Assembly (NCBI RefSeq): GCF_045037415.1
Contig: NZ_CP173438.1
Strand: one strand, 5' to 3'
DNA: 64,000 nt
Source: Escherichia coli
Lineage (GTDB): Bacteria > Pseudomonadota > Gammaproteobacteria > Enterobacterales > Enterobacteriaceae
A program made the translations under genes and the position numbers. Numbering within the stretch: the first letter of the stretch is position 1; every line of letters starts with the position of its first letter. Below are positions 32,838 through 34,884 of this stretch, piece by piece. The notes under the pieces are model-generated. The model searched no databases, was not told the origin of the DNA, and saw only the letters and a list, made by a program, of their open reading frames with translations.

Positions 32838-33953
32838 TTAGAACTGGTAGACGATACCAACTGCAAACTGGTCATCAGCTGCTGCGCCAGTAATGGCGGC
32901 GTCATCTTTATCCAGCATGTTGAATTTGTATGCAGTATAAACGTTCATGTTCTTATTGAAGTAGTACCAGGTACCAACTTCAATGTAGTTCACACGGTCA
33001 GCGTCAACATATCTATGTCCAGGTACACCTTTGATATCTTTACCTTTAGAGTACACATAACCTAAGGACGGACGCAGACCAAAGTCGAATTGGTACTGAA
33101 CAACCGCTTCAAAGTTCTGGGTTTCATTGATAAGTTGATCACGCATTATTGTATTGCCTTCTTGATCGGCAACACCTGTATCAATAGAACCCGGAGTCAT
33201 ATTACGAGTTTCACCGTACATTACAGCTGCGTAGACATTGTTCGCGTCATACTTTGCAGCCAATGACCACAGTTCAGCATTTGAACCGTTTCCATCGGCA
33301 ACTTGATCGTTGGTGCGATCAGATTTGCTATATGCACCAACGATACCAAAACCATTGATGTTATAGTCTACAGACAACGCATAGCCGTCACCATTTTGTT
33401 TCTTAGTGCTACGGTTGCTGTTTTTGCCTTGGTACTGAATCGCAAAATCAAGACCATCAACCAGGCCAAAGAAATCAGAGTTACGGTAGGTTGCAACACC
33501 GTTGGTACGACCGTTCATGAAGTTGTCAGCGGAAGCCCAGGAATCGCCACCCCATTCAACTAACATATCGGTATAAGCTGCGGCATCATAAGCAACACCG
33601 TAGTTACGGCCATAGTCAAATGATCCTAACTCGTTATATTTCAAACCGGCGAAGGTTAAACGGGTTTTTTCTTGGTTTTCACCTTCAGGCTTGCTGGCGT
33701 CGAGGTTGTATTCAAACTGACCGAAACCAGTCAGTTCGCTGGTGATTTGGGTTTCACCTTTAACACCGAAACGAGCATAGGAGGTATCTTCGTTTTCGCT
33801 GTTATTATCATCAGTATTTGACCAGATGCGTTCGCCAACCATCTTGCCGTAAAAATCAACTTTATTGCCATTTTTATTATAAATTTCAGCCGCATTTGCT
33901 GCGCCAGCAACTAATAACGCCGGGACCAGCATTGCCAGAACTTTTCTTTTCAT
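32838..33953 (-). CDS. yedS: Outer-membrane porin (OmpC/OmpF family, YedS-type), apparently intact
   Basis: Start at the internal Met ([21 protein letters not shown] signal) gives 371 aa ending in the porin motif VYQF. Confidence 0.85.
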
Positions 33954-34500
33954 TATGTATTCCCTTGTGATTATAATCTTCATGAATATATCAATAAGTG
34001 CTGTTATCCAAAAAAAGCACATTTGGATACTATTCTATGAAGTTCATTTTATTTTAAAGATTACATGTAACAAATGTATTTAAAAGATTTCAAAATGTTT
34101 CTAATCTATTTAATATAATTCATAGTTATGAATTCTGAATATAAATATTCACGAATATTATGGATATATATCAATATGTTATGAGTTGATCGAAAAAATA
34201 GGGAGTATCAATGATTGTTGCGCTAAACGGCTGGTGTGATCTCGCGCACATTAATGAAGGCATAAAAAAAAGCCGGCATCATGCCGGCCCAAAAAATATA
34301 AACAAGACGATAAAAGGCTAATAACGGAGGCATGATGACACAGAAAAATAAAAAGGTATAATTGTAATCAGTACCAATATATTGATTGAATGAATTAATA
34401 AAGCCGAAATCAAAGATAAATAACATCGTTCAAATCGATTTTTCCTGTATTCACCGCCGTTGCGCAAAATTTATCTATTTGTTCAAAAAATGATTGAGTC

Positions 34501-34884
34501 TTGACTGGCTCATCCAATGTGGAAAAATGTGACTTTTATCACATAATAGTTCTAAGTCTGAATTTTCCGGGTTATCTCAAAATGGAATACGGTTCGACAA
34601 AGATGGAAGAGAGACTCTCTCGCAGCCCTGGCGGCAAATTGGCTTTGTGGGCTTTCTATACATGGTGTGGCTATTTCGTCTGGGCAATGGCGCGATACAT
34701 CTGGGTGATGAGCCGGATCCCCGATGCCCCCGTGTCGGGATTTGAAAGTGATTTAGGATCTACCGCGGGGAAGTGGTTAGGAGCATTGGTCGGATTTCTG
34801 TTTATGGCCCTGGTTGGTGCCTTGTTAGGCGGCATTGCATGGTACACCCGACCTCGTCCCGCACGTTGCAGACGCTATGAATAA
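34501..34884 (+). CDS. yedR: Inner-membrane protein YedR (start codon uncertain)
   Basis: 127-aa ORF with two hydrophobic segments; position between the porin and yedJ. Confidence 0.7.
   Translation: MTGSSNVEKCDFYHIIVLSLNFPGYLKMEYGSTKMEERLSRSPGGKLALWAFYTWCGYFVWAMARYIWVMSRIPDAPVSGFESDLGSTAGKWLGALVGFLFMALVGALLGGIAWYTRPRPARCRRYE

Follow-up and report, generated by a model that had tools for sequence, protein, structure and literature searches.

The strong minus-strand hairpin in the intergenic region between a yedS-type porin gene and drpB (yedR), which a first-pass annotation had taken for a terminator with no gene in front of it, is the 3' end of rseX. This gene encodes a known Hfq-dependent small RNA of 91 nt, and the finding is hence already known and not new. 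The rseX gene of E. coli has been known since 2002-2006. The window, i.e. the whole stretch of 64,000 nucleotides of Escherichia coli DNA that was analysed, carries the gene at 34264..34354. We are close to certain of the joint account, according to which the locus is the known rseX, would be transcribed from a weak sigma-70 promoter into a terminated 91-nt RNA, would act in trans as an Hfq-dependent repressor and would be silenced by H-NS. Within this account, the identity, the boundaries, the synteny, the conservation and the terminator were established in the present analysis, while the Hfq dependence, the targets and the silencing by H-NS are taken from the literature.

Identity and boundaries of the small RNA gene

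The locus comprises the following features (coordinates of the window, strand, description):

32838..33953, minus strand: intact yedS-type porin gene, annotated as 'porin' in 100%-identical genomes, located downstream of rseX on the same strand
34264..34354, minus strand: rseX sRNA gene, 91 nt, with the 5' end at 34354 and the 3' end at 34264, from the RF01401 match and the alignment with MG1655 b4603
34264..34271, minus strand: 3' U8 tail (T-run), an A-run of eight on the plus strand
34270..34290, minus strand: intrinsic terminator stem-loop (GGGCCGGCA-UGA-UGCCGGCUU) with the core palindrome at 34272-34288, from the terminator scan; structured element of the Rfam model
34291..34325, minus strand: RseX core, nt 30-64 (GUUAUUAGCCUUUUAUCGUCUUGUUUAUAUUUUUU), U-rich and near-invariant by identity; predicted pairing site of the K-12 allele for ompA and ompC
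34326..34331, minus strand: hypervariable hexamer, RseX nt 24-29, here GCCUCC, with a pairwise identity of 0.54; its complement holds the plus-strand GGAGG
34332..34354, minus strand: RseX 5' region, nt 1-23, identity 0.90, with the allele-specific C21 at 34334
34361..34366, minus strand: putative -10 hexamer TACAAT of rseX (-12 to -7), tentatively assigned in the sequence by its distance from the 5' end of the K-12 RNA
34332-34361, plus strand: 9-codon mini-ORF ATGATGACACAGAAAAATAAAAAGGTATAA, which runs antisense to the start of RseX and which we do not regard as a gene
34335-34362, plus strand: promoter-like ATGACA-16-TATAAT, overlapping the mini-ORF, the rseX 5' end and the -10 hexamer
34582..34884, plus strand: drpB (yedR), divergent from rseX, with its own promoter within about 34519-34582 (PMC7648144)

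An Rfam scan of 33900-34700 matched the model RF01401 ('rseX Hfq binding RNA') over its full length (model positions 1-94 of 94) at 34265-34354 on the minus strand, with 93.8 bits against a gathering threshold of 50 and an E-value of 2e-13. RyhB, Esr41, STnc430 and Bp1_781, which have a GC-rich hairpin and a U-run in common with the window RNA, were rejected; they align over the terminator only and reach 18-23 bits against gathering thresholds of 47-102.

The window sequence aligns base for base with rseX of E. coli K-12 MG1655 (b4603, 2033649-2033739), with 88 of 91 positions identical and without indels, and the ends of the K-12 RNA project onto 34354 (5') and 34264 (3'). In MG1655 the gene lies between drpB and the yedS pseudogene on the yedS strand, and the order hchA-porin-rseX-drpB-yedJ-dcm-vsr is the same in the window. 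The two genes thus share the locus between drpB/yedR and yedS, the strand relative to yedS, the length of 91 nt and the terminator. They differ by three substitutions in the 5' third of the RNA (nt 9 A>U, nt 21 G>C and nt 26 U>C), which in the window allele alter the predicted fold and create a CCUCC at nt 25-29, and by the downstream porin gene, intact in the window and a pseudogene in K-12. Sequence and synteny together leave virtually no doubt that the gene is the rseX orthologue.

The hairpin GCCGGCAT-C-ATGCCGGC is located exactly where it had been placed, at 34272-34288. The plus strand reads GCCGGCATCATGCCGGC over this interval, preceded by eight A (34264-34271); the minus-strand T-run, earlier counted as nine, therefore comprises eight residues. 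In the terminator scan this hairpin was the strongest site between 33000 and 36000 (minus strand, 34290..34270, nine pairs of which six are G-C, followed by the T-run). The element has the 9-bp stem and the U8 tail of a Rho-independent terminator and is unchanged in 13 distinct alleles, although the window allele is predicted to favour a different, more stable fold. By analogy with other Hfq-dependent sRNAs, the U8 tail is expected to serve as the binding site for the proximal face of Hfq.

Working from the sequence only, the first-pass annotation identified the type of object correctly. Its proposal of an sRNA was borne out insofar as a minus-strand sRNA gene ends at the terminator; the gene, however, is a known one (RF01401, b4603) and lacks annotation only in the PGAP/RefSeq records of other strains. 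The supposed transcript of ~200 nt shrinks to 91 nt, and the interval 34355-34500 is occupied by the rseX promoter and an AT-rich spacer. The remark that no convincing minus-strand ORF lies upstream of the hairpin holds: one ORF of 67 aa (34223..34426) crosses the hairpin and two others measure 35-49 aa, and none of these three is annotated in any genome examined. The terminator had looked gene-free because the RefSeq/PGAP records omit rseX. Among the matches listed, PGAP left rseX unannotated in complete E. coli genomes with the exception of MG1655, despite a score of nearly twice the Rfam gathering threshold. Owing to this systematic gap in PGAP/RefSeq, scans based on sequence only keep flagging the rseX terminator as an orphan. 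The result is the rediscovery of a characterised sRNA, and its practical lesson concerns annotation.

Of 5,426 complete E. coli genomes, about 4,876 carry the 91-nt sequence, each in a single copy; 501 of them have exactly the window allele and 1,623 that of K-12. RseX has been listed among the few Hfq-dependent sRNAs of variable presence within E. coli and Shigella (PMC3318445). A scan with an exact pattern over one genome per bacterial or archaeal species, strict enough for diverged copies outside Escherichia to escape it, yielded matches in Escherichia only (E. coli, E. albertii, E. whittamii and two further species). Each of these loci scored 87-95 bits with RF01401, and the order hchA-porin-rseX-drpB-yedJ was kept in five other Escherichia loci. 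Across 14 Escherichia sequences, the mean pairwise identity of the RNA was 0.91 overall, with 0.95 for nt 30-91, 0.90 for nt 1-23 and 0.54 for nt 24-29, whereas the flanks were less conserved (0.75-0.84 directly upstream and 0.80 directly downstream). The hypervariable hexamer occurs as GCUUCC, AACUCC, AGCCCC, AACCGC, AACGAC, ACUUAC, GCUUAC and AACCCU. A covariation test over the 13 alleles found no compensatory pairs, the variation being too scant to speak for or against any helix. In E. coli 042 (locus 1171-1452) rseX is kept with one core substitution (GCC to GAC, nt 37-39).

Expression, silencing and targets of RseX

From the sequence, a weak sigma-70 promoter with the -10 hexamer TACAAT (34366-34361) would start the minus-strand transcript at 34354, and the 91-nt RNA would stop at the GC-rich hairpin and the U8 tail (34290-34264). 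The -35 element is weak and may be read as TTCAAT or TCAATC. A sigma-70 promoter of rseX is backed by 5' RACE (PMC8313858), and RseX stands outside the sigma-E regulon (PMC1804206). The former study further reports that H-NS represses rseX in K-12, with a northern band of ~91 nt appearing only in an hns deletion, that hns-deficient cells contain a species of ~75 nt besides the ~91-nt RNA and that native expression had gone undetected for two decades before this RNA was seen (PMC8313858). No native RseX could be detected in wild-type E. coli or Salmonella, whichever condition was tried (PMC8313858, PMC1804206). In the window, the G+C content is 0.27-0.33 over 33850-34600, with about 30% in the intergenic region, and such a low value is consistent with binding and silencing by H-NS at this locus. 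In the proposed mechanism, H-NS and StpA would silence rseX in K-12 and the gene would normally remain unexpressed. A missing Term-seq 3' end at the hairpin, earlier suggested as grounds for dismissing it, would mislead, because H-NS silences RseX, which cannot be detected in wild-type cells (PMC8313858).

The 91-nt RseX down-regulates OmpA and OmpC (PMC7648144). According to PMC8313858, the regulation depends on Hfq, and RseX also acts directly on fimB and ihfB; point mutations in the RNA relieve the repression of reporters for both genes, and a highly accessible 'region 1' near the RseX 5' end is implicated in their regulation. We assume that 'region 1' overlaps with nt 1-23. The U-rich stretch, the hairpin and the U-tail of the window sequence are typical of Hfq-binding sRNAs, and terminator hairpin, U-tail and upstream U-rich stretch may together form the Hfq-binding module. 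The single-stranded 5' and central segments would then form imperfect duplexes with the translation-initiation regions of ompA, ompC, fimB and ihfB and lower their expression, and overproduced RseX would relieve envelope stress.

Which RseX nucleotides pair with the targets we infer from duplex modelling. Unrestricted RNAduplex runs against the ompA, ompC and yedS leaders gave meaningless whole-length duplexes, and the search was based on 22-nt windows with shuffled controls. For the K-12 allele, the predicted sites were nt 37-51 (ompA) and nt 30-44 (ompC). The best local duplexes were predicted at -23 to -7 of ompA (-18.5 kcal/mol) and at -28 to -9 of ompC (-19.0 kcal/mol), both covering the Shine-Dalgarno regions; compared with shuffled RseX (-13.9 +/- 3.1 kcal/mol for ompA and -13.1 +/- 2.5 kcal/mol for ompC), they were just 1.5-2.4 standard deviations better and hence weakly above chance.

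RseX resembles MicA, RybB, MicC, MicF and OmrA/B, all of them short RNAs that act in trans, end in a Rho-independent terminator with a U-tail, need Hfq and repress mRNAs of outer-membrane proteins at the translation-initiation region. RseX itself lies outside the sigma-E regulon, is subject to silencing by H-NS and was found in Escherichia only when searched for with the pattern used; it has no sequence relationship with them.

The silence of the gene in wild-type cells could also mean that rseX is a relic whose expression never reaches physiological relevance and whose published effects are artefacts of overexpression. The failure to detect native RseX and the weak -35 element agree with this, as does the absence of the gene from ~10% of the E. 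coli genomes together with its classification as a variable sRNA (PMC3318445). A relic, however, would not account for an RNA body (nt 30-91) conserved at 0.95 between flanks of 0.75-0.84 across Escherichia and for an invariant terminator, nor for the RNA of the expected size that appears once H-NS is removed and the loss of fimB and ihfB reporter repression upon RseX point mutations (PMC8313858). We consider a mere relic improbable and retain the reading of rseX as a functional but silenced repressor gene.

A predicted alternative fold in the window allele

The substitutions at nt 21 and nt 26 distinguish the window allele in its predicted secondary structure. Here nt 12-26 were predicted to pair with nt 70-82, which comprise the 5' arm, the loop and part of the 3' arm of the terminator. 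The minimum free energy of this alternative fold is -17.4 kcal/mol, compared with -14.6 kcal/mol when the terminator is enforced, and the probability of the terminator stem drops to 0.03, compared with at least 0.99 in seven other Escherichia alleles, K-12 included, and in six further E. coli alleles. According to the fold prediction, G21C and U26C are needed jointly. At a nascent length of 78 nt the alternative helix already reaches -14.4 kcal/mol, against -8.7 kcal/mol in K-12. No change other than C21 disrupts the consensus pair 21-46 in the 13 alleles, and C21 was also found in A37 and in an ST131 isolate.

The predicted 13-bp, antiterminator-like helix with the 5' arm of the terminator might have turned the window allele into a conformational switch. 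Its terminator would then act as a conditional attenuator with partial read-through to the porin gene ~310 nt downstream, which is intact, on the same strand and presumably silenced by H-NS as well, or else the 5' pairing region would be sequestered and masked. Besides the predicted energies, the joint requirement for the two substitutions and the early formation of the helix, the persistence of the allele in 501 identical genomes and its recurrence in A37 and the ST131 isolate speak for such a switch. The prediction is, however, purely thermodynamic and disregards Hfq and the kinetics of transcription, and the margin of 2.8 kcal/mol is about as large as the error of the energy model. Moreover, the C21 allele precedes two porin alleles that are just 65% identical to each other, and a window-type porin is also found behind a G21 allele (O104:H4), so that allele and porin are not linked. 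The upstream region of the porin gene itself is strongly conserved (identity 0.98), suggesting an independent promoter. Taken together, we regard the conditional attenuator as an outside possibility, and the conformational switch of the allele likewise as doubtful; the preferred reading remains an ordinary 91-nt RNA ending at its terminator. If the switch were real, it would represent a lineage-specific rewiring of the RseX/porin module and a modest case of natural sRNA variation that alters termination or seed availability beside a hypervariable porin locus.

The plus strand and the flanking genes

The mini-ORF behind a GGAGG that had been noted on the plus strand is present, and so is the GGAGG. 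The suggestion that it encodes a leader peptide found no support, since the Shine-Dalgarno motif and the first ATG are unconserved and the changes are non-synonymous. Read in reverse complement, the mini-ORF corresponds to RseX nt 1-23 and the adjoining first bases of the promoter, and the GGAGG at 34326-34330 is the complement of RseX nt 25-29. A translated leader or micro-peptide would agree with the frame ATG ACA CAG ... TAA (8 codons), which is intact in all eight Escherichia sequences compared, and with the position of the GGAGG in the window allele, 6 nt upstream of the second ATG. The mini-ORF lies, however, wholly inside sequence that is conserved for another documented reason, namely the RseX 5' end and the -10 region. 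Its GGAGG falls into the only hypervariable patch of the RNA, where GGAAG, GGAGT, GGGGC, GCGGT, GTCGT or GTAAG are found elsewhere, and is missing in K-12, AR_0085, E1, L5_E1779 and all six non-window sequences of the species scan. The first ATG is replaced by ATC in seven of seven other alignment sequences; among 17 sampled sequences it occurs in three, all of them C21 alleles (window, A37 and ST131_86), and in no other Escherichia species sampled. All five codon differences of the mini-ORF are non-synonymous. The sole strong promoter-like site on this strand, at 34335-34362, overlaps the mini-ORF and would start transcription downstream of it, the mapped drpB promoter lies ~180 nt further downstream, and the mini-ORF precedes no gene in the manner of a leader. 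A conserved start and Shine-Dalgarno motif, purifying selection and a suitably placed plus-strand promoter are thus all absent at 34332-34361, and translation of this frame is highly implausible; the conserved sequence is better read as the 5' end of rseX.

The GGAGG together with the ATG is the complement of RseX nt 18-29. The idea that it mirrors an anti-Shine-Dalgarno seed of RseX was dropped, as the patch is hypervariable and the best predicted sites of the K-12 allele lie in the conserved core.

The promoter-like ATGACA-16-TATAAT is the only sigma-70 match of at least 11/12 in the whole 64-kb window and is kept in seven of eight Escherichia sequences, with GATAAT in E. albertii. One such site was expected and one observed in 64 kb, and the chance of its occurrence within the AT-rich intergenic region is 7%. 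Its assignment as the drpB promoter was rejected, the latter having been mapped to the stretch between the former start GTG-1 and ATG-22, at about 34519-34582 (PMC7648144). The site might interfere with the rseX promoter by competition, or its occurrence might be due to chance.

The porin at the yedS locus is highly variable, with 53-99% amino-acid identity to the window porin in other E. coli and Escherichia, while the flanking hchA and drpB are 92-97% identical. K-12 has a pseudogene at this position, O104:H4 a frameshifted copy and 042 one disrupted by an insertion sequence. The yedS porin locus has been linked to carbapenem susceptibility. Directly upstream of the porin start, ~110 nt (33954-34063) are 98% conserved among the 14 Escherichia sequences, in spite of differences of up to 47% between the porin coding sequences that follow; this pattern suggests strong constraint on a promoter or 5' UTR, or else a recombination boundary located at the start codon. 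In E. coli 042, the insertion that truncates the porin gene is an IS2-family element, and drpB is annotated as a pseudogene with an internal stop. In the window, PGAP places the drpB start at 34603 (93 aa, the 'M29' ATG), and western blot and rescue data identified ATG-22 as the main start (PMC7648144). ATG-22 corresponds to 34582 in the window and gives a protein of 100 aa, as in the current MG1655 record.
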